This document shows, in pieces, positions 1,332-24,800 of a stretch of 64,000 nt of DNA (its first letter is position 1; each line of letters starts with the position of its first letter). The notes under the pieces are model-generated. The model had not been told where the DNA came from and searched no databases. It saw nothing but the letters and a program-made list of their open reading frames with translations. Made by a program: the position numbers and the translations under genes. The stretch comes from an uncultured virus (IMG/VR IMGVR_UViG_3300042893_000829) (lineage: Duplodnaviria; Heunggongvirae; Uroviricota; Caudoviricetes): the IMG/VR virus record IMGVR_UViG_3300042893_000829; one strand, given 5' to 3'.

Positions 1332-1382
1332 TCTATAATAATATGAACTTCACAATTAAAATGTATGTTTTATTTTTATAGT

Positions 1383-8900: not shown

Positions 8901-11900
8901 TACCTGACGTACCATTAGTACCATTAGTTCCCGATGTTCCGTTAGTTCCATTGGTCCCTGAAGTTCCATTTGTTCCGCTTGTACCTGAAGTTCCATTTGT
9001 ACCTGAAGTCCCATTGGTTCCATTTGTTCCCGAAGTTCCATTAGTACCGTTGGTTCCATTCGTCCCATTTGTTCCTGATGTTCCATTTGTTCCGTTTGTA
9101 CCTGAAGTACCATTTGTACCTGAAGTTCCATTTGTACCTGAAGTTCCGGCAGATGTTAATAAATTTGTGCCGACACCCGCAGCACATGCGGTTATGTCAA
9201 GAAACGCACCTCTTGCAGTACCACCTTGTTCAAAAAACCTAATTCTATTTTGCCATACGTCAAAAGTAACGCCTGCGCCTGCAATGGTAGTGTTAGTTAC
9301 AGGTTTACTTAATAGGATTTCTCCACCTTCATCACCAGCCTGATACAATACACTTAATTTTGTACCGTCAAAAGTTAAAAGAGATTCGGCAACTATTCCA
9401 CCCGATCCGTTTGAAGTTAGTATTTGGTCGTTTGACCCTGGAACTGTTGGTGATGATCCACTAGTTCCATTGGTTCCGCTCGTACCATTAGTACCTGAAG
9501 TTCCATTTGTTCCTGATGTTCCATTTGTGCCGTTAGTACCTGATGTACCATTTGTACCTGAGGTACCATTCGTCCCATTAGTACCCGAAGTTCCATTAGT
9601 TCCGCTAGTCCCATTTGTACCATTTGTACCCGAAGTCCCGTTTGTTCCGTTAGTACCATTTGTTCCTGACGTTCCGTTCGTACCATTAGTACCTGAAGTT
9701 CCATTTGTACCCGAAGTTCCGTTTGTACCTGATGTCCCATCAGTTCCATCAACCCCAGAAAGGCCACTAGAACCACTAGACCCACTAGTACCATTTGTTC
9801 CATTCGTTCCCGATGTTCCGTTTGTACCATTAGTCCCTGATGTACCATTTGTTCCATTTGTACCACTAGTTCCGTTGGTACCACTTGTACCATTCGTACC
9901 GTTTGTCCCTGAAGTACCGTTTGTACCACTTGTTCCATTAGTTCCATTTGTGCCTGAAGTACCGTTAGTTCCTGATGTACCATTCGTTCCGCTAGTACCA
10001 TTTGTACCATTTGTACCTGACGTACCGTTGGTTCCATTCGTCCCTGAAGTCCCGTTAGTTCCGTTCGTACCATTAGTGCCAGATGTTCCATTGGTCCCTG
10101 ACGTTCCGTTGGTACCTGAAGTTCCGTTAGTACCTGAGGTTCCATTCGTACCATTAGTACCTGACGTACCGTTAGTTCCACTCGTACCATTTGTTCCTGA
10201 AGTTCCGTTAGTACCGTTAGTTCCTGATGTCCCATTTGTCCCTGAAGTTCCGTTGGTACCATTTGTTCCTGACGTTCCATTGGTTCCTGAAGTACCGTTA
10301 GTCCCATTTGTTCCGCTAGTACCATTTGTTCCTGAAGTGCCGTTAGTACCTGAGGTTCCCGATTCTCCATTTACACCACTTGTACCGTTAGTACCACTTG
10401 AACCATTAGTACCATTAGTCCCTGAAGTACCGTTAGTACCAGATGTTCCGTTTGTGCCTGAAGATCCTGAGTCTCCATTTACTCCGCTAGTACCATTAGT
10501 TCCTGAAGTTCCGTTTGTTCCATTAGTTCCATTAGTTCCATTAGTTCCGCTAGTACCATTTGTACCACTAGTCCCATTTGTCCCTGATGATCCGTTTGTT
10601 CCTGAAGTACCGTTCGTACCATTTGTTCCACTAGTGCCGTCGGTACCTGAAGTTCCATTCGTTCCGTTAGTACCTGATGTACCATTTGTTCCTGAAGTTC
10701 CATTTGTACCGTTGGTACCACTAGTTCCAGAAGTTCCGTTTGTACCTGAAGTTCCATTCGTTCCGTTAGTACCTGACGTTCCATTTGTTCCGTTTGTACC
10801 CGAAGTACCGCTAGTACCATTTGTTCCACTAGTACCGTCGGTACCTGAAGTTCCATTCGTTCCGTTAGTGCCACTAGTACCGTTCGTACCGCTAGTACCA
10901 TTTGTTCCCGATGTTCCGTTAGTACCATTAGTGCCTGAAGTACCATTAGTACCAGATGTTCCGTTTGTACCTGAAGATCCTGAATCACCATTTACTCCGC
11001 TAGTACCATTTGTGCCCGATGTTCCATTCGTACCGCTAGTACCATTTGTGCCGTTAGTCCCTGACGTTCCATTTGTTCCATTTGTACCTGAAGTCCCATT
11101 CGTTCCGCTAGTCCCGTTTGTTCCATTCGTTCCGCTAGTTCCGTTTGTTCCACTAGTTCCTGACGTTCCATTTGTTCCTGAAGACCCTGAGTCACCATTT
11201 ACTCCGCTTGTGCCGTTAGTACCTGATGTTCCATTTACTCCACTTGTACCATTCGTTCCTGACGTACCGTTAGTTCCTGATGTTCCGTTTGTACCGCTAG
11301 TACCATTTGTACCATTTGTACCCGAAGTTCCATTGGTACCATTTGTTCCGTTGGTGCCTGATGTCCCATTAGTTCCACTAGTTCCATTTGTGCCTGAAGA
11401 TCCTGAGTCTCCACTTACCCCGCTCGTACCATTAGTACCTGAAGTTCCATTAGTACCATTTGTTCCGTTGGTGCCTGATGTCCCAGAAGTCCCTGATTCC
11501 CCATTAACTCCGCTTGTACCATTAGTCCCTGATGTTCCGTTTGTACCGTTAGTTCCTGAAGACCCATTTGTTCCATTAGTGCCGCTAGTTCCATTTGTTC
11601 CATTAGTGCCGCTAGTTCCATTTGTTCCGTTTGTTCCTGATGTTCCATTAGTGCCGCTAGTTCCATTTGTTCCGTTTGTCCCTGATGTTCCGTTAGTACC
11701 ATTAGTACCTGATGTTCCATTAGTTCCTGAAGTACCATTTGTACCTGACGTTCCGTTTGTTCCATTAGTTCCCGAAGTTCCGTTTGTCCCATTTGTTCCG
11801 CTAGTACCTGAAGATCCGTTAGTACCATCAGTACCTGATGTTCCATCTGTTCCATTAGTTCCACTTGTACCTGAAGTTCCGTTTACTCCAGATATACCAC

Positions 11901-14367
11901 TTGTGCCGTCAGTACCTGAAGTCCCGTCTGTTCCGTTTGTTCCATCAGTACCGCTTGATCCATCAGTACCGTTAGTTCCTGAAGACCCATCGGTTCCATT
12001 TGTACCTGAAGTTCCATCTGTACCATTTGTGCCTGAACTACCATCTGTTCCATTTGTTCCACTTGTACCATCTGTTCCCGAACTACCATTTGTACCATCA
12101 GTACCGCTAGTCCCATCTGTACCTGAACTACCACTAGTTCCATCGGTTCCGCTAGATCCATTTGTTCCATCAGTACCTGAAGTACCATCTGTTCCATTTG
12201 TTCCGCTTGACCCATTAGTTCCGTCTGTACCACTAGTACCGTCTGTTCCGCTTGTACCATCGGTACCACTTGAACCATCCGTACCGTTAGTTCCTGAAGA
12301 TCCATCTGTTCCATTTGTACCTGAAGTTCCATCTGTACCACTTGTACCATCCGTACCACTAGTTCCATCTGTTCCATTAGTCCCTGAAGACCCATTAGTC
12401 CCGTCTGTTCCTGAAGATCCATTAGTACCATCCGTTCCGCTAGTTCCATCCGTACCACTTGTTCCATCTGTTCCTGAACTACCATTTGTTCCCGAAGTAC
12501 CATTTGTTCCGTTAGTTCCACTTGTACCATTTGTTCCGTTAGTACCTGACGTTCCATTTACTCCCGATATTCCACTTGTTCCGCTAGTTCCATTTGTTCC
12601 GCTCGTACCATTTGTACCGCTAGTACCATTTGTCCCGCTCGTACCATTAGTTCCGTTAGTACCATTTGTACCATTTGTACCGTTGGTCCCACTTGAACCA
12701 TTTGTTCCATTAGTCCCTGAAGACCCTGATGAACCATTTGTTCCATTAGTACCCGAAGTTCCATTAGTACCCGAAGTTCCATTAGTACCCGAAGTTCCAT
12801 TAGTTCCTGATGTCCCGTTGGTACCGCTTGAACCATTTGTTCCGTTAGTACCAGATGTTCCATTTGTCCCGTTAGTACCAGATGTTCCACTTGTTCCATT
12901 AGTCCCATTGGTTCCACTTGTACCATTTGTACCATTTGTACCATTAGTTCCTGAAGTCCCATTTGTACCTGACGTACCGTTCGCGCCTGAAGTTCCGTTT
13001 GTACCATTAGTACCCGAAGTTCCATTAGTACCCGAAGTTCCATTAGTACCCGAAGTTCCATTTGTCCCCGAAGTACCGTTTAATCCTGAAGTACCATTAG
13101 TTCCAGATGTGCCACTAATACCATTTGTTCCTGATGTTCCTGAGGTACCATTTGTTCCGTTGGTCCCAGAAGTTCCATCTGTACCATTAGTTCCTGAGGT
13201 TCCATTCGTTCCTGAAGTTCCATTTGTACCTGAAGTTCCATTTGTACCTGAAGACCCATCCGTACCATTTGTACCTGAAGACCCATCCGTACCATCCGTA
13301 CCATTTGTACCATTAGTACCTGAAGTTCCATTTACTCCAGATATCCCACTTGTTCCATTAGTTCCTGAAGTTCCATTAGTCCCACTTGTTCCATTCGTTC
13401 CTGACGTACCGTTGGTTCCACTTGATCCATTATCCCCCGATGTTCCAGATATACCACTTGTTCCAGATATACCACTTGTTCCGGATATACCACTTGTTCC
13501 GTCAGTTCCATTACTCCCAGATGTACCATTAGTTCCTGAAGTTCCATTTGCACCACTTGTCCCATCACTACCCGAACTACCATTAGTTCCTGAAGACCCT
13601 GCCGTTCCTGAACCACCACTTGTGCCCGAAGAACCATTCGTTCCGCTAGTACCGTTAGTACCTGAAGTACCATTAGTACCATTAGTCCCTGAAGTTCCGC
13701 TAGTTCCTGAACCACCACCCCCAGAGGTTATTCCAGTTATTATAATTGTTGATCCATCATTGTTATATAATTCTAAAGTACTACTACCTGAAAAATATGT
13801 TCCCCCAGTTAAACAACAACCAGGTTCCGGGAATACTTTCCAAACCGAATCATTTCTTGTAACACCATTTACACCTTCAATTGAATTGTCTAACCAAGCA
13901 TTAATAAATGCAACACCTTCAGGTGTGTTATTTCTAACTGTTGTACCATAGTCTGAAAATATTACGGTTCTACCTCCGGGACCTGTTGCTCCAGAGGCAT
14001 TTAAAAATAATGTATTGTAATTTTCTATATTGAATTGATAAACCGTATCTCCACTGTAAGCATATGCCAACATACCTAATCTTCTTCTACCTGAAGATAT
14101 ATTATCAGAATTAAGAACTATTGAGTCAAATGAAAATACCGAACCAGTTCCTTTATAATAATGTATAGGTATTGTATTTCCAATAAATTCAATATACCCT
14201 GTTTGACCTGAAGGTATTGTATATAATAAATCATTTGTGGTATATACTTCCATATAACCACCAATATTTAATACACTAAACGTTGTCCCAAACGGTTTAG
14301 TTCTCAATACGGATTGTGGTCCTAAAGAGACAATTGGGGTTATTGGGTTTCTATATACTTTTGACAT
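5938..14367 (-). CDS. Giant collagen-like (Gly-X-Y, mainly G-T-N/G-T-S/G-T-D) fibre protein, putative virion appendage
   Basis: 2809-aa ORF with Gly at every third residue over about 2000 aa in three main blocks. It has globular N- and C-terminal domains, and an internal WQGSWNLMSTYNINDVVQFAGSSYISL module resembles small carbohydrate-binding repeats of tail fibres. Confidence 0.85.
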   Translation of the reverse strand: MSKVYRNPITPIVSLGPQSVLRTKPFGTTFSVLNIGGYMEVYTTNDLLYTIPSGQTGYIEFIGNTIPIHYYKGTGSVFSFDSIVLNSDNISSGRRRLGMLAYAYSGDTVYQFNIENYNTLFLNASGATGPGGRTVIFSDYGTTVRNNTPEGVAFINAWLDNSIEGVNGVTRNDSVWKVFPEPGCCLTGGTYFSGSSTLELYNNDGSTIIITGITSGGGGSGTSGTSGTNGTNGTSGTNGTSGTNGSSGTSGGSGTAGSSGTNGSSGSDGTSGANGTSGTNGTSGSNGTDGTSGISGTSGISGTSGISGTSGDNGSSGTNGTSGTNGTSGTNGTSGTNGTSGISGVNGTSGTNGTNGTDGTDGSSGTNGTDGSSGTNGTSGTNGTSGTNGTSGTNGTDGTSGTNGTNGTSGTSGTNGISGTSGTNGTSGLNGTSGTNGTSGTNGTSGTNGTSGTNGTNGTSGANGTSGTNGTSGTNGTNGTNGTSGTNGTNGTSGTSGTNGTNGTSGTNGTNGSSGTNGTSGTNGTSGTNGTSGTNGTSGTNGTNGSSGSSGTNGTNGSSGTNGTNGTNGTNGTNGTSGTNGTSGTNGTSGTNGTSGTSGISGVNGTSGTNGTNGTSGTNGTNGTSGTNGSSGTDGTSGTDGTSGTDGTNGSSGTDGTNGSSGTNGTDGTSGTDGTSGTDGTSGTNGTDGSSGTNGTDGSSGTDGTSGTDGTSGTDGTNGSSGTNGTDGTSGTDGTNGSSGTDGTSGSSGTDGTSGTDGTNGSSGTDGTSGTNGTDGSSGTNGTDGTSGTNGTDGSSGTNGTDGSSGTDGTNGTDGTSGTDGTSGISGVNGTSGTSGTNGTDGTSGTDGTNGSSGTSGTNGTNGTSGTNGTNGTSGTNGTSGTNGTSGTNGTNGTSGTNGTNGTSGTNGTSGTNGTNGTSGTNGTNGTSGTNGTNGSSGTNGTNGTSGTNGTSGVNGESGTSGTSGTNGTNGTNGTSGTNGTSGVSGDSGSSGTNGTSGTNGTSGTNGTNGTNGTSGTNGTNGTSGTNGTSGTNGTSGTNGTSGVNGTSGTNGTSGVNGDSGSSGTNGTSGTSGTNGTSGTNGTNGTSGTNGTSGTNGTNGTSGTNGTNGTSGTNGTSGTNGTSGVNGDSGSSGTNGTSGTNGTSGTNGTNGTSGTNGTSGTNGTSGTNGTNGTSGTDGTSGTNGTSGTSGTNGTNGTSGTNGTNGTSGTNGTSGTSGTNGTNGTSGTNGTSGTNGTNGTSGTDGTSGTNGTNGTSGTNGSSGTNGTSGTNGTSGTNGTNGTNGTNGTSGTNGTSGVNGDSGSSGTNGTSGTNGTSGTNGTNGSSGTNGTSGVNGESGTSGTNGTSGTNGTSGTNGTNGTSGTNGTSGTNGTNGTSGTNGTSGTNGTNGTSGTNGTSGTNGTSGTNGTNGTSGTNGTSGTNGTSGTNGTSGTNGTNGTNGTSGTNGTNGTSGTNGTNGTSGTNGTSGTNGTSGTNGTNGTSGTNGTSGTNGTNGTSGTNGTSGTNGTNGTSGTNGTNGTSGTNGTNGTSGSSGSSGLSGVDGTDGTSGTNGTSGTNGTSGTNGTNGTSGTNGTNGTNGTSGTNGTNGTSGTNGTSGTNGTNGTSGTNGTSGTNGTNGTSGTNGTSGTNGTSGTNGTSGSSPTVPGSNDQILTSNGSGGIVAESLLTFDGTKLSVLYQAGDEGGEILLSKPVTNTTIAGAGVTFDVWQNRIRFFEQGGTARGAFLDITACAAGVGTNLLTSAGTSGTNGTSGTNGTSGTNGTNGTSGTNGTNGTNGTNGTSGTNGTNGTSGTNGTSGTSGTNGTSGTNGTNGTSGTNGTNGTSGTNGTNGTNGTSGTNGTNGTNGTSGTNGTSGTNGTSGTNGTNGTSGTNGTNGTSGTNGTSGTNGTSGTSGTNGTSGTNGTNGTNGTNGTNGTSGTNGTSGTNGTSGVNGDSGSSGTNGTSGTNGTNGTNGSSGTNGTSGTNGTNGTSGTNGTNGTSGTNGTNGTNGTNGTNGTSGTNGTNGTSGTNGTNGTSGTNGTNGTNGTSGTNGTSGTNGTNGTSGTNGTNGTNGTSGTNGTSGTNGTSGTNGTNGTNGTNGTSGTNGTNGTSGTNGTNGSSGTNGTNGTSGTNGTNGTNGTNGTSGTNGTSGTNGTNGSSGTNGTNGTSGTNGTSGTNGTNGTSGTNGTSGTNGTNGTSGTNGTNGTSGTNGTNGTSGTNGTSGTNGTNGTNGTSGTNGTSGISFNWQGSWNLMSTYNINDVVQFAGSSYISLINGNTGIPTPPFSGNWALMAQAGTSGTDGTSGTDGTSGNNGNPGKVGNDGSNSGRWFYDGTFPIPASPSSTTFLADTQIISTISAIAINIEDINTTNYYDWFDSLNTLISAGNKGYLQITELSNNSVIGIYEIGVITDNITYWEISLTFVTGSGSLTDTAEYTVSWVFNGLDGTSGTNGTNGTNGTNGTSGTNGTNGTNGTNGTNGTSGTNGTSGTNGSSGTNGSSGTNGTSGTNGTSGASVVINSNANNYLVTATGTANTLQGESGAIFDGTTLTLEKDSASPNISMTDRATNDPFVRFIPSTGTNSVAVGIDNTNQAFTISYGATAVLGSNNRMSIFTTGNIGINNFLQIGSSGAPTYPLDVTSGTRVTDGISARIINASSEGVLFSPYVSAGGYNNNSVLGDTAMVSTTGENLVIGANGSNAGFRFINTGNTTTTVGNLYSIGSSTKLGYDTGAGGTVTQLTSKSTGVTLSRPTGQIVMHSATLNADTTVSFTLTNTTIGATDIVVLQHTSVGTSASYNLNAFPSGGSAVISVRNVTTGNLGQAIVLSFAVIRAVTA
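6900..13715 (-). repeat. 9-bp-period coding tandem repeat (GGN-ACN-AAY/TCN/AGY/GAY) in blocks at about 9460-13715, 7715-9145 and 6900-7110
   Basis: Directly visible 9-nt periodicity (e.g. gtaccatta / gttccattt / gtacctgaa on the + strand) with heavy synonymous variation. Confidence 0.95.
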
Positions 14368-14379
14368 ATCTTTTTTTAA

Positions 14380-15303
14380 TTATGATGAAACTGTGTTTCC
14401 TTTAAAATAAATATTTTCATTATTCGTTAATTTAAATTCAGAACTTGGGTATGATGTATAAACTCTATATGTTGTTTGGAAAATTGTTGATCCAGTATAC
14501 GTAAATGTGTTTGAATTAATAGTTGATTCCATATATATTGGTGTAAATATATTTGGGCTACCATTAGAACTTAAATCAATTATTATTTGTTTTTGGTTAT
14601 TTGTTAAACTAATTGGGATTACCCAGGTGTACCAAGAATCTCCAGGTATTGTGAATTCAGGAATTTCAGTTGTTGTAAAATTGTATGCAACAATATTATT
14701 ACCAAATGAATCTAAACCTCCACTTACTTGAGGTACAGATTTATTTATTATATGTGGGAACTCTCCAGATGTCCAACCACTAAATCCAACATATCTGTTA
14801 AGTTCTGTATTAAATATTGTTTGATTTTGTGTTGGTTGACTATTATTACTAAAACCATAGAAATCAAAACCACCATCATACATCCATTGACCCATTAACG
14901 TTCCTCCACTTATTGGTTCAATAAACAAGTAAGCCAAGTAAACAGGGGTTGGTGTAGGTGTAGGAGTAACTCCAGGTGTTGGAGTAGGTGTATTTGTTGG
15001 AGTAGGTGTTGGAGTAGGTGTTGGTGTTCTGGTAGGCGTATTTGTTGGTGTTATTGTTGGTGTTGGAGTATTAGTTGGTATTGGTCTTAATACGTTTAGA
15101 ATATTTGGACAATCAGAACCTAAAATTAAAATAGTATATGTTCCGTAAACTTCTCTTTCCGGTATTAATAAATTTGGTTGAAAAATAAACGGTAGAGTTA
15201 CATCACCCAAATTAATGGTAATGTTATCATTATCCGGTTTAAATAAAATATTCGCTATTTCACCGTCAAAATTTATACTTTGTATTGTTATTATTTGACT
15301 CAT
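14380..15303 (-). CDS. Hypothetical structural protein with Pro-Thr (PT) repeat linker
   Basis: About 45-aa PTNTPTPT... tract followed by a beta-rich domain. The gene ends 12 nt before the start of the giant fibre gene and is preceded by GTATTTATA. Confidence 0.7.
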   Translation of the reverse strand: MSQIITIQSINFDGEIANILFKPDNDNITINLGDVTLPFIFQPNLLIPEREVYGTYTILILGSDCPNILNVLRPIPTNTPTPTITPTNTPTRTPTPTPTPTPTNTPTPTPGVTPTPTPTPVYLAYLFIEPISGGTLMGQWMYDGGFDFYGFSNNSQPTQNQTIFNTELNRYVGFSGWTSGEFPHIINKSVPQVSGGLDSFGNNIVAYNFTTTEIPEFTIPGDSWYTWVIPISLTNNQKQIIIDLSSNGSPNIFTPIYMESTINSNTFTYTGSTIFQTTYRVYTSYPSSEFKLTNNENIYFKGNTVSS

Positions 15304-15334: not shown

Positions 15335-15775
15335 TCATTTTTTCACCTTAATAAAATTATACCACAATCTTTCGTGAGCAAAATATATAAATGGTTTTAA
15401 CACTAACTCACTAACCCCAAGTAATGTTGAGACCCCTATTGATGCCCCTAATGAATACGCAACCCCGACGGTAGTTAAAGTACCTAAAAACCTATAGGTA
15501 ATTGTTTTAAGTATATGTCTAACTAAAACAGATTCTTCTTTAATTGTTTTAATATATGCAATATTATTTTTAATTTTACAGTGACCAACACAACTAATAT
15601 GCCATTTATATTCATTTATTTCTGGCAACCAATCTTTTGTGGTATAAGTATTACCATCAATAATAATATCTGAAACTAATATTTCATTTCCATTTTCAAT
15701 CAATCTCCACCTATTATCTTTGGTTTCGGAAACTGTATTAAATCTAATTTGGTAAGTTTTACTTTGTGTTTTCAT
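15335..15775 (-). CDS. DUF2061-domain membrane protein with an extra N-terminal domain
   Basis: C-terminal RHILKTITYRFLGTLTT...FIYFAHERLW pattern recognised as DUF2061. Confidence 0.7.
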   Translation of the reverse strand: MKTQSKTYQIRFNTVSETKDNRWRLIENGNEILVSDIIIDGNTYTTKDWLPEINEYKWHISCVGHCKIKNNIAYIKTIKEESVLVRHILKTITYRFLGTLTTVGVAYSLGASIGVSTLLGVSELVLKPFIYFAHERLWYNFIKVKK

Positions 15776-16223
15776 CCGTCAAATAATTAATTATATCTTC
15801 TTGTATTGATTCGTCAACCATAAATTTCCATTTATCATCTTCTTTTGATATTGAGTTTCTAATACCTGTTGCGGAAATAAAACCAATATTATCTGGAGGA
15901 GTAAATTCATTTATTTCATACCCAACACCTCTACCGTAATTAACAGATTCAATATCTGGAATAACAATAACCTTAACATTATCACCTTTTGATTTGTGAT
16001 ATTTCTCAATCATTGTAACGGTTTGTTCTGTTGTAAATGGATTTTTATCATCAGGTTCAATATCTCTAACCATAATAAGGGCCGGAATACCTTGATTTAA
16101 TTTTTGTTGTATTAACTCTATATGACCATAATGATATGGTTGGAAACGGCCTATAAAGATTGCATATTTCTTACTTTCATTCGTTGTAGGATTTCCTCCA
16201 TGATTTTTAACTTCCCAGGTCAT
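15759..16223 (-). CDS. HxGH (cytidylyltransferase-like) nucleotidyltransferase; candidate minimal ATP sulfurylase
   Basis: GRFQPYHYGH and C-terminal ISATGIR motifs. Its start overlaps the cysC stop (ATGA). Confidence 0.75.
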   Translation of the reverse strand: MTWEVKNHGGNPTTNESKKYAIFIGRFQPYHYGHIELIQQKLNQGIPALIMVRDIEPDDKNPFTTEQTVTMIEKYHKSKGDNVKVIVIPDIESVNYGRGVGYEINEFTPPDNIGFISATGIRNSISKEDDKWKFMVDESIQEDIINYLTDENTK

Positions 16224-16669
16224 AAATTTTCAATTATTTTGTTTAAAGATATTTGAGGGTCAACATTTGTGGTATCAATGTCAATAAAGTTTTCTGTTGG
16301 TTGTTCATATTCGTCAGTATGAAAATGTTCTCTACCTCTAATGTCTGTAGTATGAACATAAAACTCTACAAGTAAATCACCTAAATCGTACTTAAAACTT
16401 TCTCTAAGTTCTTTATATGGAGCAACTAAACTAACGATAACAGTATGTCCTTGGGCTAAGATAAATTTTGCAATGTCTTGAGCTCTTTTAATATTTTCCT
16501 CACGACCTTCTCTACCATATTTTTGGTTGTTAAATAACGATCTAAGTTCATCCCCATCAATATGAAAAACTTTATTTTTATCTTCTAAAACCGTTTTTAA
16601 CATTAAAGACAAAACTGTCTTTCCTGCCCCAGGTTGACCAGTAAACCAATATATTTTATTATCTCTCAT
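16220..16669 (-). CDS. cysC: Adenylyl-sulfate (APS) kinase
   Basis: IYWFTGQPGAGKT P-loop, IDGDELR, REENIKR, VSLVAPY and YEQP motifs. ATG at 16669. Confidence 0.9.
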   Translation of the reverse strand: MRDNKIYWFTGQPGAGKTVLSLMLKTVLEDKNKVFHIDGDELRSLFNNQKYGREGREENIKRAQDIAKFILAQGHTVIVSLVAPYKELRESFKYDLGDLLVEFYVHTTDIRGREHFHTDEYEQPTENFIDIDTTNVDPQISLNKIIENL

Positions 16670-16671
16670 AA

Positions 16672-17490
16672 TCAAAAATATCCAAATTGGTCATAAAACC
16701 ATTGGTAATTACTTTTAATCCAGTTTGAGGCATTAACACCCAAAACTTCTTTATAATCACTTTTAATAGGTTCTATTTTACTTTTTATTGTATGGTCACC
16801 GTATACCCCATAAACCTCATCATCTTCTTGAGTTATTTGTTCCACATTATTAAAGTCGTGTTCAAAATATGGAAGTTCTAAATAATTGTATATTCTTTGC
16901 ATCTCCTTTTTTGGGTTTGATGTAAAGTCCTCAAATTTTACAAACAAAACATTTTGGTTAATACCCTCTTTAAACATTTGATATAACCTTTCTAATGACA
17001 TACCAACAGGTTGTGACTGAGCCCAAATATCAATCCTTTTTTCTGTTGTGGTTCCTTTCATTTGTGAGTGGTCAACCAAACCAGAATCCTTATGTTGGTT
17101 TTTTCTAAAGTTTTTCTCCATTGAAGAGAATATTCCTCTTAAATCTCTAACCATACAAATAATTTTTGGATTTGGATAGAATGAATTTAAAAACCCATAA
17201 TGTACTCCCCACCCTCTACTTTTATCTAAAACGTAAGGTTTATCGGTTACACCATTAAAAAATCCTAACATACCCTGATTACAGAAATTTAAAAACCCAC
17301 TCTTCATTAATTCAGGGTCTTGAGCTTTAAATTCTGGAGATGTGGAATAGTTTGATCTTGATGCGTAAACTAATTCTAAAACACCAGATGTTGGTGTTAC
17401 ATAAAAATCGGGATTCTGACCCATTACGTTTTGTAGTAGTGTTGATCCAGCTCTTGGTAATGAGCTTTGAAAAAATATCTTTTGTACCAT
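16672..17490 (-). CDS. PAPS-dependent sulfotransferase
   Basis: 5'-PSB loop SLPRAGSTLL, DKSRGW, KIICMVRD..S (3'-PB), VKFEDF..NP...RIYNYL. Confidence 0.9.
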   Translation of the reverse strand: MVQKIFFQSSLPRAGSTLLQNVMGQNPDFYVTPTSGVLELVYASRSNYSTSPEFKAQDPELMKSGFLNFCNQGMLGFFNGVTDKPYVLDKSRGWGVHYGFLNSFYPNPKIICMVRDLRGIFSSMEKNFRKNQHKDSGLVDHSQMKGTTTEKRIDIWAQSQPVGMSLERLYQMFKEGINQNVLFVKFEDFTSNPKKEMQRIYNYLELPYFEHDFNNVEQITQEDDEVYGVYGDHTIKSKIEPIKSDYKEVLGVNASNWIKSNYQWFYDQFGYF

Positions 17491-17495
17491 AATTA

Positions 17496-18377
17496 TTATT
17501 TTAAACTTTCTATTATTTCATTTATGTCAAAAATGTTTGTATCAAACATAGGGCATTCGTGTACTGTACCATTAAAATTATAATCAAATAAATAACTATC
17601 TGGTAATTTAACGGTTGTGGGTAATGTTGCAATTATATTGTTATGTAAATTATAACCAAATACTATTGGTGATGTCCCTACCCATAAAACAGTTGATTGT
17701 AACCCCATTGCTGCCGATGCGTGTTGCAAACAAGAGTCAATTAATATTCTTTTTTGAGAATAGGCCAGTAAGGAAAATAATTCCATATTTGACATTGATT
17801 CAAAAAACGCCTCCACATTATTTAACACATTTGATTTATCTCTACATATTTGGATAATATGATAATATTTTGAGAAGTGGTCAACTAATTTCTGGGCAAC
17901 ATCATAAGGAATATCTCTAGTCCAAGAATATGGGAACGGTTGTTCTTGTAGTGGTCCTCCGTTTGTTTGAATAACCATTACTGGTTTATCTCTTGCCCAC
18001 TTATTCTGAGCTATTTGTTGTTGCCTTAAATTAAAAGAAAGGGATGGTTGTTCTCCATTATATTCTAATCCAAGTAACTTACACCAGTTAACAATTAGAG
18101 GTAATTTTTTATTAATATGGTCCGATGTAAAATATGGTTCGTGTTTAAAAATTAAACTTTCCTTATCTTTAATGTAATCATCATAAAAATAAGGTGTCAT
18201 ACCAACACGATAAACCCTATCAACATAATCCAAATTTAAAAACACTTCCGGATATGCACAAACTATTATTAGTTCTCTATCCGGATGATTATTTTTTATA
18301 CATTTTGCAACCGCGGTTGATAAAACATGTTTACCTAAACCACCCTCTACGTGAAATATACTATATTTTTTTTCCAT
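17496..18377 (-). CDS. GT9-like (GT-B) glycosyltransferase
   Basis: GGLGK N-terminal loop and ILIDSCLQHASAAMGLQSTVLWVGTSPIVFGY motif. Confidence 0.75.
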   Translation of the reverse strand: MEKKYSIFHVEGGLGKHVLSTAVAKCIKNNHPDRELIIVCAYPEVFLNLDYVDRVYRVGMTPYFYDDYIKDKESLIFKHEPYFTSDHINKKLPLIVNWCKLLGLEYNGEQPSLSFNLRQQQIAQNKWARDKPVMVIQTNGGPLQEQPFPYSWTRDIPYDVAQKLVDHFSKYYHIIQICRDKSNVLNNVEAFFESMSNMELFSLLAYSQKRILIDSCLQHASAAMGLQSTVLWVGTSPIVFGYNLHNNIIATLPTTVKLPDSYLFDYNFNGTVHECPMFDTNIFDINEIIESLK

Positions 18378-18397: not shown

Positions 18398-19306
18398 TTA
18401 ACTATTAGTAAAGTTAATTACTTGGTTTATTTTATTAATAACCATTTCTGGTGTTATACTCCTATGACATTCATTTTCTCTTTCAGTGTTTAAAAATATT
18501 GGACAACTACTTTTAATGTTTGGAAACATATTAAAACATCCGTTACATACATAAGGATTTTCAACTCTAAAACATTCAAACTCGTTTTGTTTTTTAGTGA
18601 AGTTTGATATCATAACAACAGGAACTCCATACGCCCACGCCAACCAAGATAACCCAGAAGATAAACCAATAAAAAATCTTGATTCTAAAATATGATTTAA
18701 TGAAACATTTATATCGTTGTTTCCGTGAAATCCTTTTGCGTTTTGTAAATTTAATGTATTTTCATACGAAACATTATAAACATCAAAATTACTATTAACC
18801 AATTCATTTATGATTGTTTGCCAACCATCCTTATATTCCCATTTTGATATTTCCTTTATTGTTTCAGGACCCATCGTTATTTTATTTTTATTTATGATTC
18901 TTTGTTTGGGTATTACTGGACATTTACCTGGTTTTGTTTCTTGAGGTAAGAACATTGTATCTTTTGCAGCATAAAACATTCCACCAAGAGTATGGGACAT
19001 ATTATCTTTATGGTACCCAACATCAATTAACTTATCTATCTCAATAGATTTAGATTGATTTGCGTTTATAAACTCATACTTTGGATTTGTTGACTTTAGT
19101 AAGTGGGGGAAGAATGTTGATATATAAACTTTTTTTGGTTTATGATATTCCATAAACGGGTCTATAAGGGATGAAAAACATATCGTATCTCCCAAACAAA
19201 AAGAATCAAAATGTAATAAAAGTTCTTTATCTTTAAAATTAGATAAATTAGGATCTCTTTCAGTATATTTTAATAGTTCTGAATTATCGTAATGTCTTTT
19301 AACCAT
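18398..19306 (-). CDS. Aah/TibC-type autotransporter O-heptosyltransferase-like protein
   Basis: CLGDTICF, FFIGLSSGLSWLAWAYGVPVVMISNFT and RVENPYVCNGCFN...CP...NECHRSITPEMV. It is paralogous to the middle of the 1383-5858 protein. Confidence 0.8.
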   Translation of the reverse strand: MVKRHYDNSELLKYTERDPNLSNFKDKELLLHFDSFCLGDTICFSSLIDPFMEYHKPKKVYISTFFPHLLKSTNPKYEFINANQSKSIEIDKLIDVGYHKDNMSHTLGGMFYAAKDTMFLPQETKPGKCPVIPKQRIINKNKITMGPETIKEISKWEYKDGWQTIINELVNSNFDVYNVSYENTLNLQNAKGFHGNNDINVSLNHILESRFFIGLSSGLSWLAWAYGVPVVMISNFTKKQNEFECFRVENPYVCNGCFNMFPNIKSSCPIFLNTERENECHRSITPEMVINKINQVINFTNS

Positions 19307-20042
19307 TTTTTAATTTAAGAATTTTAGAATAATAATCAAACCAATATTTTTCTTGCCAAATTGTTCCTTCTTCTAAAAAGACCAATGGTTTGTTTTGCCA
19401 AGGTTTTTTTGCAATAAAATGTAATATTTTAATATATTTAGGTAAACCCGAATTTTTAAATATTTCTTTAGAATATGTTTTTAAATAATTGTATTCGATA
19501 GAAATTGGGGTGATAATATCACTAAAGTAGTGGTCAATAATATCTTGGTCTAAATGTTCTGTAATTCCATAAATTGTTGTTAAATGAATTAAATCATTTG
19601 TTATTTTTTCATTTAAAAATTCTTTACTAATTACCATTACCCCAGTGTTATATTGGTCAATATAAAGTTCTCTTACTGCACCAAAAGGTTTTTCATAATC
19701 AATCAAATAATCTATGTTACCTAATACAACAATGTCACAATCTAAAAATATAATCTTATCAAATTCCGTTAATGAAAAAATTTCATATTTTGTATAATCA
19801 CCAAACATTCTTTGTTGGTCTTTTAATTTTTCTATCTCAAAATATTTTTCAGTATCAAACTTTTTTATATGAATATTGTTGTATATTTTTCTTGAGGTAA
19901 TTAAATCTTCAGGGTTTAAATCGTTACTAATTATAACAAATGGAATATTTTCATTTACAACTCTTGGGTTGTTATCAATTAATGATTTTAACATTACTTC
20001 AAACCCGATTAGATAATCTTTATTACAAACACTTACAAACAT
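19299..20042 (-). CDS. GT8-family glycosyltransferase
   Basis: KIIFLDCDIVV (DxD), YNTGVMVI, DQDII and ILHFIAKKPW. Confidence 0.9.
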   Translation of the reverse strand: MFVSVCNKDYLIGFEVMLKSLIDNNPRVVNENIPFVIISNDLNPEDLITSRKIYNNIHIKKFDTEKYFEIEKLKDQQRMFGDYTKYEIFSLTEFDKIIFLDCDIVVLGNIDYLIDYEKPFGAVRELYIDQYNTGVMVISKEFLNEKITNDLIHLTTIYGITEHLDQDIIDHYFSDIITPISIEYNYLKTYSKEIFKNSGLPKYIKILHFIAKKPWQNKPLVFLEEGTIWQEKYWFDYYSKILKLKNG

Positions 20043-20137: not shown

Positions 20138-21790
20138 CTAAGATGACCACCTTGCACGACATCTCCAATTAATTATTGTGGATGTATCACCTTCATCGTT
20201 ATTTTGAACACTAACAATTATAGTGTCGTCGGCATAAGTCAAAACACTTGTAACACTTGAAGGAAATGTTGACTGGTTTAGATTTATAGTAGGTCCGTCT
20301 GCTGACAATTCATACAATGAACCTGTATCTCCAGATAATAAATATCCAGATGTAAATTCTTGTGTTAATCCTGATAAATAATTGTTATCATAAGCATTAC
20401 ACCAAATTTTTACATTTGTTGTTCTAAATTCTTGTGGTGTGATAAGTATTTCTATAATGTTTGCACTAGTACCTCCAGTTATTGTAACATCTGCAGTGTT
20501 ATATCTAAAGTTGTTTAAATCTACGTAAGATCCAGAATCATTATTATTGGTATAAATATAAATCTGACCGTTATCAACACTAATTTGGGACTCATTATTG
20601 TCGTCAGATGATGTGAGTGTAATTCCGCCTGATCTTAAATTAAACAATGAATTTGACGTAACTCCAGATTTTGTAACACCCATATTAATTTCTCCAGAAA
20701 TAGATGTAAAATCATTTACCGATAATGAAGCAAACTCTAAATTAGATTTTATCAAGGTTCCGTTTGTCATAACAATATCACTACCAGTTTCATTACCAAT
20801 TGAAATTACTTCAGATAATGATGGTGTATTACCAGTAAAATCATTACCAACAATAACCAAACCATTTGAGTCAATGCCTAAACTATTAACTGAAGTGCCT
20901 GTTGATATATTTCCAATATTTAAATAAGGAACATAAACTGTGTCATCTGTTGTTCCTGTAATACCAGAACCACCAATAACCACAATTCTATCTCCCATAA
21001 TAACCGAATTATTTGATATCGCAAAAGAACAATCCCCAATTACGGTATTTGTATATCCCCCAGATACGGTTGACCCATATCCTGAAACGGTATTTCCATA
21101 TCCCCCAGCAATAACTGAATTATATTTTATTGCGGTGTTAAATGAACCACCCCCGATTGTTACACCATCTAAATAAGCTTTATTACAAATACCTCCAGAT
21201 ATTGTGGCGTAAGTCCCATAGTTTTGATTTCTTGTACCACCGGCAACCACAGAAAAGTTTGATACCGATGTGTTTGAGTTACCCCCACCAACAACAGAAG
21301 AACTTCCTAAGTTTGCATTATTACAACCACCACCAACAATTGAGAAGTCAGCAATAGATGTGTTGTTTAAACCACCTCCGATTATCCCATAAAGGGAATT
21401 AACCGTATTATTTTCCCCACCACCAACTACGGTACATTCACAAGTGGAAACGTTAAATGTTCCACCAGCAACAACCGATAAAGAATCAGATGCGGTATTA
21501 TTTTTACCACCACCAATAAATGAAAACTCACCATTGGCAACGTTTAATGAACCACCAAGAATCCCAGAACAAAATCCTGAAGATGTGTTTAAAAACCCTC
21601 CACCAACAACCGAGTTATAACAAGACGATGTGTTATTTTGTCCACCACCAACAAATGAATATTTTCCTGATGAGGTATTTTGATAACCACCTGTTACTGT
21701 CGCATATTGTCTAATTGCGGTGTTTTGATTATCACATCTTACTGTTGATGTTAGTCCACCAATAGGGTCGTTTATAATAACATATGCCAT
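20138..21790 (-). CDS. Adhesin/tail-fibre-like protein with 15-residue SxVxGGxxN beta-roll repeats
   Basis: About 16 repeats such as YSFVGGGQNNTSS. Its N-terminus (MAYVIINDPIGGLTSTVRC) is paralogous to that of 21855-25943. Confidence 0.75.
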   Translation of the reverse strand: MAYVIINDPIGGLTSTVRCDNQNTAIRQYATVTGGYQNTSSGKYSFVGGGQNNTSSCYNSVVGGGFLNTSSGFCSGILGGSLNVANGEFSFIGGGKNNTASDSLSVVAGGTFNVSTCECTVVGGGENNTVNSLYGIIGGGLNNTSIADFSIVGGGCNNANLGSSSVVGGGNSNTSVSNFSVVAGGTRNQNYGTYATISGGICNKAYLDGVTIGGGSFNTAIKYNSVIAGGYGNTVSGYGSTVSGGYTNTVIGDCSFAISNNSVIMGDRIVVIGGSGITGTTDDTVYVPYLNIGNISTGTSVNSLGIDSNGLVIVGNDFTGNTPSLSEVISIGNETGSDIVMTNGTLIKSNLEFASLSVNDFTSISGEINMGVTKSGVTSNSLFNLRSGGITLTSSDDNNESQISVDNGQIYIYTNNNDSGSYVDLNNFRYNTADVTITGGTSANIIEILITPQEFRTTNVKIWCNAYDNNYLSGLTQEFTSGYLLSGDTGSLYELSADGPTINLNQSTFPSSVTSVLTYADDTIIVSVQNNDEGDTSTIINWRCRARWSS

Positions 21791-21854: not shown

Positions 21855-24800
21855 TTAAAGAGATATTTTTAATGTACCACTATCATTCCATACGTATCCG
21901 GTTATCCCAGGATCAGTAGTTGGTAAACCATCCATTCTTACTTCAGTAGTCGGTTGTCCACCTCCACTTACAGTAAAGTTATTAACATATGTGTGATATG
22001 GTCTATCAGAAGTTATATTACAACCAACAATATGTGAGTGAATACAAGTCGCTTTGTTTGAACACCCTCCGATAATTGATGTGAAATCTCCTGCCGATGT
22101 GTTAAGAGTTCCTCCACCAACAGTTGCGTTTAAACCTACCGATGTGTTAGATAAACCTCCAGATACAGTACCGTTGGTTGACGATGATCTAACAACGTTA
22201 GATCTACCACCACCAATGTAACCATACTGACCACAAACTTTATTTCCACAACCACCAAATATACTACCAAAAGATGATGGAGATAATACCATATTATTAT
22301 AACCACCCCCAATTGACCCATAAAGACATGAGTTTGTGTTTAATCTACCTCCACTAATCACAGAACCACAAGCGGTTAATGTATTAATATTACAAGCACC
22401 ACCCCCAATTGTTGAATTCCATATTAAAGATTGGTTACTAAATCCACCAGCAACTACGGTTGAAACCCCTGATGAAATATTTAACATACCCCCACCAACT
22501 ACGGTTTGATAACATGATGATGTATTACTACAACCACCACCAATAAATGAGTAATATCCAGAACTTGTATTAGATCTACCTCCCGCAATTGTTGAATAAG
22601 GGGAAGCGGCATAGTTATTAAAACCACCTAAAATTGAAGATCCGTTAGAATATGAAGAGTTAGTACAACCTAACGCAATTGACGAATTTGCTGAAGCTAT
22701 GTTTGAGTTTCCAGCCCTTATTGAAGAACCTACTCCAGTACCCGCAACTATAACACCAGTTAATCCAGTAAATGTAATTCCACCAATAGAAACTGTTCCG
22801 TTTTGTCTTTCTAAGTTTAAGATACCAGTACTATTATCAAATGTACCTCCAGTTACATAATAATCATTATTTAAGAAACCAGTTGCGGTAACAACGTTTC
22901 CATTATTTAATGATAAATCTAAAGTTCCGTTAGAGTATGTTGCTCCAGTTACAAAATTATTTAATGTTTGGAATCCTAATACACTGATTGGGGCTTGTCC
23001 ATTATTTTGGAGTAATGTTAATTCTCCAGTTGACGCACTATAAGTAGCTCCGGTTAAGAATGTATCCGTACCACCTGTATAAAGTCCATTTATTGTAACA
23101 GAACCATTTTGTCTATCTAATGTTATTGAACCATTAGAATAAGTTCCACCAGTTACATAGTAATCTGTGAATCCTGTAATTGTTACTGTTGATCCGTCAG
23201 TATTTGTTAAAGTTAAATCTCCAGCAGCAAAAGTACCACCAGTTAAGAACACATCAGTGTATCCAGTTGTAAACCCTGACACATCAACTGTTTGTCCAGA
23301 TGTGTTTGTAAATGTTACAACACCTGTACTAGAATTATATGTACCTCCGGTTAAACCTAAGTCAGTTGCTAAAATCCCTAAACTTACCGTATAATCGTTA
23401 CCATCGTTAACGGATGCCGTTAATGTAAATCCACTAGTGTCAAATGTTAAACCAGTTAAGAAATAATCTGTTGTTGACGAACCAACAACAACATTACCTG
23501 AACCATCAACCGCTAAGTTTGAAACTGGAGTTGTTGCTCCTACTGTTTGAATATTTAAATATGGTACGTAAACAGTGTCGTTATTAGTTGATATAATATT
23601 TTGACCACCAACAACTGCACTTCTAGTTCCAACTGCGGTATTATTACAACCACCAAGTATCATTGAATATAAACCGGATGTTGTATTTAATCTACCCCCA
23701 CTAATCACTGACCCACAAGCGGTTGGTAATGTTGTGTTACACGCACCACCACCAATTGTTGAATTCCATATTGATGCTGCGTTACGGTAACCTCCACTTA
23801 CTGTTGTTGATACTCCAGAAGATGTATTACTGTAACCACCACCAATTGATGCGCTTACGCAAGTTGATTTATTATATCCACCACCACCAATTGATGAATA
23901 GCACCCTAGTGATATGTTATAAAGTCCACCACCAATTGATGACTGAGTCCCTAATGATGTATTATTCCATCCACCTCCAATTGAAGATTGAACCCCTAAT
24001 GATGTGTTAAAACACCCACCACCAACAGTAGCTTGATTATTACAAGTTTTATTACCCCAACCACCAACAATACTTGACATATAACCTTGTGTTTGGTTTG
24101 AATAACCTCCACCAACAAATGAATACGCACCAGTCGCAGAGTTAAAATAACCACCCGCAACTGTATCGGTAACGCTGTTTGCAAGGTTGGATACACCTCC
24201 ACCAACAGTAGCACCATACTGTGTTGCTACGTTATTATAACCACCAATTACTGTTGAATATTGTCCCGAAGCACTGTTATTATTATTTTTTCTAACTGTT
24301 GAGGATCCTCCTGTCCCCGCTATAATAACTGCGTCATCAATTCCAGAAATATTAACAGTACCGTTTTGTTGTTGTATTGTTATTGTTCCTGTTGATGGTG
24401 TGTAATATCCTCCAGTTACGTAAACATCTGTGTATCCAGTTAAGAAACCGGTAACATTAAATGTTCCTCCACTACTATTTGTAAATGTTGCGGTACCACT
24501 GTTAAGGTCATAAGTACCTCCAGTAATTGTCATATCTGAAGAAAGTATACCTAAATTAACCGTATCGGTAAATCCGTCATTTCTTTCTATTGTTAAATCA
24601 TAATTAAGAGTATCAAAAGTCATTCCGGTAACATAAATGTCCGTAAACCCTGTTGTAAACCCGGTTATTAAAACAGATTGTATTTGACTATCTAACGTTA
24701 AAGTTCCCGTATTGTTATCATATGTTCCTCCTGTAACATATGAATCTAATGCCGTAAATCCTGTGATTGTTACTGTTGAACCATCAGTATTTATTAAAGT

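Follow-up and report, generated by a model that had tools for sequence, protein, structure and literature searches.

Sulfate activation is the entry point both to biological sulfation and to assimilatory sulfate reduction, and the textbook enzymes that carry it out are of two types, Sat and CysDN. Here we describe a 64,000-nucleotide stretch of DNA (the window, to which coordinates refer) from a large uncultured marine phage, in which a 154-amino-acid HxGH nucleotidyltransferase (NT) is encoded directly downstream of a short gene of the adenosine 5′-phosphosulfate (APS) kinase family, cysC. The window belongs to IMG/VR viral record IMGVR_UViG_3300042893_000829, which is 83,869 bases long with a CheckV completeness of 29%, and PHROG matches identify in the window one gene for the phage major head protein (54610-56454) and another for the portal protein (60894-62693). 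On comparative-genomic grounds, and with a probability that we put at roughly 0.78, we propose that the phage cassette containing NT makes and uses activated sulfate, with NT acting as its ATP sulfurylase. NT would most likely belong to a very small, putative third kind of ATP sulfurylase, and a full-text literature search found no description of such an NT-type family.

In the proposed scheme, NT would move AMP from ATP to sulfate on a minimal HxGH fold, yielding APS and pyrophosphate. The adjacent short CysC would then phosphorylate APS to 3′-phosphoadenosine 5′-phosphosulfate (PAPS), pulling the unfavorable first step forward, and a sulfotransferase encoded in the same cassette would spend the PAPS, probably on a glycan or fiber made by the neighboring glycosyltransferases. 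An earlier sequence-only reading of the window had suggested that NT is a stripped-down sulfate adenylyltransferase, and this suggestion is supported by the linkage, the fusions, the complementarity with CysD and the sir-cysH-NT operons described below. Gene order, domain families, fold class, family-wide linkage, fusion and phyletic pattern were established directly; from these we infer the catalytic activities of NT and of the short CysC, the binding of sulfate by arginines of NT (R53 and R98), the sulfation target and any role of the DUF2061 protein encoded at the end of the cassette.

The NT family is large, with 2957 near-length homologues (1273 representatives at 50% identity, 397 at E ≤ 1e-10), whose public name is "cytidyltransferase-like protein." A conserved linkage or fusion of NT with cysC had been set beforehand as a test of the sulfurylase proposal, and this is what we observe. 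The gene immediately preceding NT is of the cysC type in every one of the 67 related viral loci; it has the same orientation as NT and ends at most about 380 nucleotides before it. This upstream slot is filled by one of two CysC lineages, either the short phage type or a full-length type that is 50–60% identical to a Flavobacteriales CysC. The whole seven-gene block, from the GT8 gene to the DUF2061 gene, is found in 9 of the 67 loci, one of which (L045) is a second record with identical encoded proteins. Because the block recurs and the cysC-NT adjacency holds at every locus, we conclude that the cassette arrangement is not due to chance.

Fusion gives the same picture. The APS kinase domain PF01583 is carried by 118 of the 120 listed longer NT homologues, and in the two that do not carry it, P0229 and P0231, NT is preceded instead by a Cys-rich N-terminal stretch of 160–240 residues. 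Pfam was also run on 69 of 150 listed representatives, those of at least about 171 amino acids (P0310 was missed), and an APS kinase fusion was present in 46 of them, 32 in the order kinase-NT and 14 in the order NT-kinase. Not one of these 69 has a Nudix, ribosylnicotinamide kinase or sugar kinase domain fused to NT; the other fusions seen are NT-DUF2061 (P0289 and P0354) and a single NT-DUF6717. The fusion proteins are about 300–350 amino acids long in either order, and their public name is "adenylylsulfate kinase." In the AlphaFold2 model of a natural short CysC-NT fusion (A4), the domains are confident, with a predicted local distance difference score (pLDDT) of 82.2, but the predicted template modeling score (pTM) is 0.51, so we claim no fixed domain interface. 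A predicted complex of NT with the short CysC scored 0.00, which has no bearing either way on binding. More distant joined proteins occur in two cultured Xanthomonadaceae phages, Xylella phage Sano (gp35, L120 3587-4324) and Stenotrophomonas phage DLP6 (AAY80_227, L121 3590-4321). Each is about 245 amino acids long and consists of a weak APS-kinase-like P-loop domain joined to a distant NT domain (phrog_10255); their function may differ from that of NT, and Sano gp35 lies a few genes from a "cysteine dioxygenase" gene. The two lack a sulfur-related setting, and we do not count them in favor of our proposal.

In the window, the cassette is a co-directional block of seven abutting or overlapping genes, listed here from first to last:

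19299..20042, minus strand: GT8, a family 8 glycosyltransferase of 247 amino acids, first gene of the block (PF01501, 3.8e-22).
18398..19306, minus strand: a relative of the TibC/Aah-like autotransporter heptosyltransferases, 302 amino acids (TIGR04414, 2e-36; 125.8 bits, under the cutoff of 200).
17496..18377, minus strand: g293, 293 amino acids, family unassigned (only phrog_8954, of unknown function, 1.5e-5).
16672..17490, minus strand: a sulfotransferase of 272 amino acids, the presumed PAPS consumer (Sulfotransfer_3, 1.9e-21; Sulfotransfer_1, 7.1e-12; phrog_27463, 1.7e-42).
16220..16675, minus strand: a short APS-kinase-like CysC, 151 amino acids, TTG start (PF01583 APS_kinase, 8.4e-19).
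15759..16223, minus strand: NT, an HxGH nucleotidyltransferase of 154 amino acids, candidate miniature ATP sulfurylase (CTP_transf_like, 6.1e-8).
15335..15775, minus strand: a 146-amino-acid protein with about 85 N-terminal residues of no known family and a C-terminal DUF2061 membrane domain (PF09834, 2.8e-13, residues 88-138).

The sequence-only reading had described the last four of these genes as abutting or overlapping, with no Sat or CysDN gene in the window, and both statements hold. In the list of open reading frames (ORFs), the overlaps are 4, 4 and 17 nucleotides, and neither PF01747 (Sat) nor PF01507 (the CysD/CysH family) has a match anywhere in the viral record; because that record is 29% complete, the absence cannot be extended to the full phage. 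Its description of NT was also accurate, in that the translation contains GRFQPYHYGH and ISATGIR, Sat belongs to the same superfamily and has an ISxTxxR-like motif (ISGTEIR in 2gks), and NT is less than half the size of Sat.

The block also contains the TibC-like gene and other glycosyltransferases, and this is the setting in which NT could be a sugar-phosphate nucleotidyltransferase, for example an HldC-like enzyme that supplies ADP-heptose to the TibC-like heptosyltransferase. HldC is likewise a small HxGH enzyme, of about 160 amino acids. We consider this explanation highly improbable, because the TibC-like gene is not detected beside NT in 58 of the 67 viral loci and tblastn gave no TibC-like match at the cellular loci, where the NT family is linked to cysC, cysQ, cysH and sir. 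Furthermore, HldC/RfaE models are absent from the 20 NCBIfam families that match NT at E ≤ 0.01, and the HldC structure 5x9q superposes on the NT model with a Z of only 6.0 over 97 residues, the lowest of the listed relatives.

The other alternative raised at the outset was that NT is a nicotinamide mononucleotide (NMN) or nicotinic acid mononucleotide adenylyltransferase (NMNAT), an auxiliary gene of nicotinamide adenine dinucleotide (NAD) synthesis that merely sits beside sulfation genes. The best matches of NT are indeed to archaeal NMNATs, some phages encode NadM-type NMNATs, and the motifs GRFQPxHxGH, NP and SxTxIR are common to NT and the archaeal enzymes. The top curated NCBIfam models are archaeal NMNAT, but their scores are far under the cutoffs, at 48.3 bits versus 127 for NF002243 (8.2e-13) and 43.4 versus 181.2 for TIGR01527; the CoaD model TIGR01510 gives 27.6 versus 103.3. 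The similarity is also confined to the ATP-binding half. The Pfam CTP_transf_like match covers the N-terminal half of NT, and a family profile (A1) built from 35 diverse members matches the archaeal NMNAT 1f9a at 3.6e-14 while spanning only profile positions 13-82 of 141.

We aligned the 35 family members with nine archaeal NMNATs taken from loci L016-L033. The two groups have ATP-site residues in common (G25, R26, P29, H31, G33, H34, P62, D90, T119, I121 and R122), with H31-Y-G-H34 forming the HxxH of NT, and G25, R26, H31, H34, S117, I121 and R122 show little or no variation across the NT members. All nine NMNATs contain a conserved segment, about 20 residues long and including an invariant Trp, that is absent from all 35 NT members; we take it to be the NMN (nicotinamide) site. 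The residues conserved specifically in NT are R53 (Gly in the NMNATs), P89, G97, R98, G101 and Y102. The two extra invariant arginines on the acceptor side would fit a small anionic substrate, and R53 and R98 may bind sulfate. In addition, NadD scores over its cutoff in all five NT-bearing bacterial genomes tested and many NT-bearing archaea carry a second, NMNAT-type match, so NT is not needed as an NMNAT in these genomes. Given as well that the 69 scanned proteins have 46 fusions to APS kinase and none to Nudix or ribosylnicotinamide kinase, and that NAD synthesis leaves the cysC, cysH and cysQ contexts unexplained, we regard the NMNAT explanation as very unlikely.

The AlphaFold2 model of NT is confident (pLDDT 90.1, pTM 0.82), and Foldseek and VIA-align group it with the minimal nucleotidyltransferases, the top VIA match being phosphopantetheine adenylyltransferase (PPAT; Z 15.4), with the archaeal NMNAT 1f9a at Z 14.8. 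A VIA search made independently of Foldseek gave 14.8 for NMNAT, 13.8 for PPAT, about 11 for NadD types and 10.9 for the catalytic domain of Sat. The latter is Thermus 1v47_B, which aligns over 131 residues with a root-mean-square deviation of 2.9. Other Sat-type folds score lower in VIA-align (3cr8, Z 9.2; 2gks, 8.8; 1j70, 7.3), and the cytidylyltransferases range from Z 6.6 to 7.7. Sat was not among the matches listed in the Foldseek and first VIA searches and appeared in the wide VIA search.

We examined the cellular distribution of NT in three lineages. Close cellular relatives of NT, 14 in number and 70–77% identical, come from marine metagenome-assembled genomes (MAGs), and nine of them, labeled Flavobacteriales or Weeksellaceae, have cysC directly upstream of NT. 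On a 591-kb contig (L011), the order is cysC (239 bits), NT, a deoC-like gene, CysQ (261.6 bits versus a cutoff of 228.8), a flippase and three sulfotransferases; BLASTP of the ORFs without a family beside NT in L011 and in the archaeal locus L131 found no relation, the one in L011 being the deoC-like ORF. We sampled 301 Flavobacteriales genomes (the order of G002), among which NT occurs in 12, CysC in 133 and CysD in 196. None of the 12 NT-bearing genomes has CysD. As many as 120 of the 133 CysC-bearing genomes have CysD, and 11 of the other 13 have NT beside cysC, while the remaining two have truncated CysC matches only. For the CysC-bearing genomes, Fisher's test gives p = 2e-14, computed without phylogenetic correction. 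No Sat scored over the cutoff in 14 Flavobacteriales genomes (12 NT-bearing, the others with truncated CysC matches).

A similar pattern is seen in the archaeal class of G005, sampled with 201 genomes. The A1 profile also matches true NMNATs (E 1e-11 to 1e-17, in the N-terminal half), and 34 of the 201 genomes have a proper NT match (E ≤ 1e-21). Gene content was tested in 48 genomes, of which 24 were NT-bearing, all of the fusion type, and 24 were presumed NT-negative genomes from the top of the table; ten NT-bearing archaea (G005, G428, G448, G454, G466, G478, G506, G541, G490 and G591) fell outside this set. CysC is present in 28 of the 48 and shares an ORF with NT in all 24 NT genomes. Two genomes picked as NT-negative, G424 and G437, turned out to hold CysC-NT fusions truncated at contig ends. 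In G439, G479 and G572, CysC lies inside an ORF of 644–646 amino acids, and CysD is found in exactly these three of the 48, with Sat in none of the 48. Thus, 25 of the 26 fusion-bearing genomes are without both CysD and Sat. On two archaeal contigs (L131, 698 kb, and L132, 198 kb), the CysC-NT fusion is adjacent to CysQ or one gene from it, amid housekeeping genes; the L131 CysQ scores 243.3 bits against the TIGR01331 cutoff of 228.8, and that of L132 was identified as Inositol_P by Pfam only.

The remaining five of the 14 close relatives are labeled Nitrospirales or Nitrospiraceae, and in all five loci the gene order is sulfite reductase (Sir), CysH and NT, with no CysC adjacent. An Rrf2 regulator lies upstream in the three loci that extend far enough. 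The CysH of L010 carries CC and CxxC cysteine motifs, which we take to be a mark of APS reductases. In the sir-cysH-NT operon, a sulfurylase is the sole missing enzyme of the route from sulfate through APS and sulfite to sulfide. The order of G001 was sampled with 121 genomes, five of which have NT, and CysD is absent from all five.

Several points weigh against the assignment of NT as a sulfurylase, beginning with these same genomes. All five NT-bearing genomes of the G001 order also have a Sat-CysC ORF, so complementarity between NT and Sat is not strict, and the Sat motifs look intact in G311 and show a single N-to-S change in G319. Among the archaea, G572 has CysD and the CysC-containing ORF together with a CysC-NT fusion. 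The cellular genomes are MAGs, so that an absent gene may be an assembly gap, and the Fisher p value overstates independence, as NT-bearing genomes within the lineage may be close kin. The genes for gp35 and AAY80_227 are surrounded by genes of DNA metabolism, and no sulfotransferase is annotated within 4 kb of them. The short CysC is under the NCBIfam equivalog cutoff (TIGR00455, 68.4 versus 138.7) and is divergent, with a lid region that the profile does not match. The sulfurylase reaction is thermodynamically unfavorable, and NT would have to carry it out with a core of about 130 residues and no GTPase partner. Finally, PF01747 does not match the window NT at E ≤ 0.01; when A1 is compared by hhalign with the catalytic domains of five Sat proteins, the match falls short of significance (E 0.018, probability 2.5%) and its 46 aligned columns lie around HxxH only; and the nearest solved proteins by both sequence and fold are archaeal NMNAT and PPAT rather than Sat.

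We therefore place NT, by sequence, outside the Sat family; its catalytic fold class is the same. Consistent with this, Sat is not among the best 60 matches of the A1 profile, the Sat active-site motifs QxRN and GRDHAG are absent from NT (GRFQP stands for QTRNP and GRGVGY for GRDHAG), and neither the PUA-like N-terminal domain PF14306 (PUA_2) nor the PP-loop CysD family PF01507 has a match in the 154-residue protein. The PF01747 cutoff of 24.3 bits is exceeded by a single distant member of the family, P0341, with 26 bits.

The Sat-CysC ORFs in the G001 order were judged against motifs invariant in aligned active enzymes (Aquifex 2gks and Penicillium 1i2d). The GRDHA loop of Sat loses its Arg and His in three of the five genomes, becoming GWDYA in G003, EPNYA in G001 and GQDYA in G315 (ORFs in L038, L039 and L118, respectively), and in G315 HxxH also becomes YRVH, with loss of the first His. 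PUA_2 is still matched in the Sat of L039 (1.3e-45). The NT-negative relatives G357, G314 and G328 have intact Sat motifs, and G389 has a degenerate Sat but also a CysD-like gene. Similar motif losses are seen in the same alignment in Thiobacillus denitrificans 3cr8, whose sulfurylase-like domain is described in a preprint as being without catalytic activity (bioRxiv 10.64898/2026.04.02.716029). The decay of Sat would fit relaxed selection once another sulfurylase is present, a circumstantial point, and the degenerate domains may be inactive scaffolds, as in the T. denitrificans APS kinase.

These data also bear on whether NT could serve sulfur-nucleotide metabolism in another role, by adenylylating another anion, by recycling APS or PAPS, or as a structural or regulatory partner of CysC, with APS coming from an unrecognized source. 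The genomic ties point to APS/PAPS metabolism without fixing the reaction, Sat-CysC is found alongside NT in every NT-bearing genome of the G001 order, and inactive sulfurylase-like domains that stabilize APS kinase are known, according to the same preprint. We nevertheless think such a role unlikely. The HxGH and SxTxxR residues are kept in 35 diverse members, which argues for catalysis, and the sir-cysH-NT operons without an adjacent CysC show that NT is not a mere CysC accessory. Moreover, no other sulfurylase was found in 11 Flavobacteriales and 25 archaeal genomes with CysC, and CysQ accompanies NT in three inspected loci. We therefore retain ATP sulfurylase as the preferred assignment for NT.

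The short CysC matches PF01583 with 68.5 bits (cutoff 21.1) over profile positions 4-110 of 152, and its residues G13-T20, D40, G41, D42, R45, R58 and N61, which make up the P-loop, DGD..R and R..N motifs, are invariant in 19 phage-type homologues; the protein would be expected to convert APS to PAPS. The 272-amino-acid sulfotransferase scores 77.7 bits for PF13469 (cutoff 27) and 45.7 for PF00685 (cutoff 22), and no other PF00685 match occurs in the viral record. The g293 protein, which has no Pfam or NCBIfam match, adjoins the sulfotransferase even in the rearranged loci L059, L075, L076 and L078, and the two probably act together. In those loci, the g293-sulfotransferase pair has moved across cysC-NT-DUF2061 or to the other strand. 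Just upstream of the GT8 gene is a terminator-like hairpin (20110-20088). Promoter-like sites in the same promoter/terminator scan were near chance level (46 versus 39.4 expected), and a search of RNA runs matched four metatranscriptome runs, each with 0.05 of the query words.

NT is immediately followed by the DUF2061 gene in 32 of the 67 viral loci, and the clusters retrieved in a search with the protein were all viral DUF2061 clusters. Of the 301 Flavobacteriales genomes, 73 contain PF09834; its distance from cysC or cysD is less than 2 kb in 38 of these and 2.8 kb in 1, and it is not near them in 22, with 12 undetermined. It is often a tandem pair just upstream of cysC-cysD, and in 11 of the 12 NT-bearing Flavobacteriales a tandem DUF2061 ORF is found at another place in the genome. 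This proximity to cysC and cysD and the NT-DUF2061 fusions tie DUF2061 to sulfate activation, and we propose that it is a membrane partner of the pathway; our guess is that it serves in tethering or in sulfate delivery.

Directly upstream of the glycosyltransferase and sulfation genes, the minus strand encodes three large fiber-like proteins (20138-21790, 21855-25943 and 26052-28238), none with a PHROG match; the 550-amino-acid one is rich in GGxxNxxS repeats. We regard these proteins as candidate substrates on which the TibC-like heptosyltransferase and the sulfotransferase may act. Adjoining the cassette on its downstream side is a gene for a 307-amino-acid protein with a long Thr/Pro-rich linker (14380-15303, minus strand), with weak repeat-driven matches only. 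It is followed by an ORF of 2809 amino acids (5938-14367, minus strand) made up almost entirely of Gly-Thr-(Ser/Asn) triplets, collagen-like and with globular inserts, over which the G+C content is 39–46% versus about 30% elsewhere; long antisense ORFs over it (e.g., 9470-13951, plus strand) look like by-products of the repeat. At 1365-5858, on the plus strand, is a 1497-amino-acid protein with a C-terminal methyltransferase-like region (phrog_21658, 4.2e-18).

Taken together, the observations allow a broader picture that we hold tentatively and think doubtful as a whole. NT would be a third, independently recruited class of ATP sulfurylase that displaced both CysDN and Sat across entire marine lineages, namely streamlined Flavobacteriales, a class of planktonic archaea, Nitrospirales-labeled bacteria and their large phages. 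DUF2061 would be a general membrane partner of sulfate activation, a small protein that delivers sulfate or acts as a tether, found with cysC/cysD operons in bacteria and beside or fused to NT in phages, and the phage would be equipped for the whole pathway leading from external sulfate to a sulfated glycan on the virion. If the NMNAT-like NT family, of about 130–155 residues, is a third type of sulfurylase, genomes that have been scored as unable to activate sulfate would need re-annotation, including those of abundant marine Flavobacteriales, planktonic archaea and some Nitrospirales-labeled bacteria, with consequences for how marine sulfur use and the production of sulfated polysaccharides are modeled. 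Large phages would then carry a PAPS supply that is sufficient in itself, probably for sulfation of their own surface structures, and NT, as the smallest sulfurylase known, would be of interest for regenerating PAPS enzymatically.

How NT relates to known systems can be summarized as follows. Sat-type ATP sulfurylases (EC 2.7.7.4; PF01747; Thermus thermophilus 1v47, Aquifex aeolicus Sat-CysC 2gks) have in common with NT the proposed reaction, the HxxH superfamily, the ISxTxxR motif and the habit of being fused or adjacent to APS kinase. NT differs from them in having no PF01747 match, PUA-like domain, QxRN or GRDHAG, in a sequence nearer to NMNAT, and in a core of about 130 residues compared with 350–570. 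The archaeal NMNATs (TIGR01527; M. jannaschii 1f9a, M. thermautotrophicus 1ej2) are the best match in sequence and fold, but the partners and neighbors of NT belong to sulfur activation and its residues R53, G97, R98 and G101 differ from theirs. CoaD and CoaE, which are fused in coenzyme A synthase, follow the same logic of a small HxGH adenylyltransferase of about 155 residues followed by a P-loop 3′-OH kinase. There the acceptor is phosphopantetheine rather than, as proposed for NT, sulfate, and the kinase partner of NT is of the APS-kinase family and not CoaE; the strong fold match of NT to PPAT (Z 15.4) reflects the shared minimal fold only. CysDN (CysD, TIGR02039 and PF01507; CysN, a GTPase) occupies the same pathway position, and in Flavobacteriales and the archaeal class it is replaced by NT as the neighbor of cysC. 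Its fold is unrelated, however, since CysDN is a GTP-driven pairing of a PP-loop ATP pyrophosphatase with a GTPase, and NT has neither. Lastly, bifunctional PAPS synthases (animal PAPSS1, 1x6v, and bacterial Sat-CysC) put both steps on one polypeptide as the CysC-NT fusions appear to do, with the difference that the sulfurylase half of the fusions would be the miniature NT and not a Sat domain.

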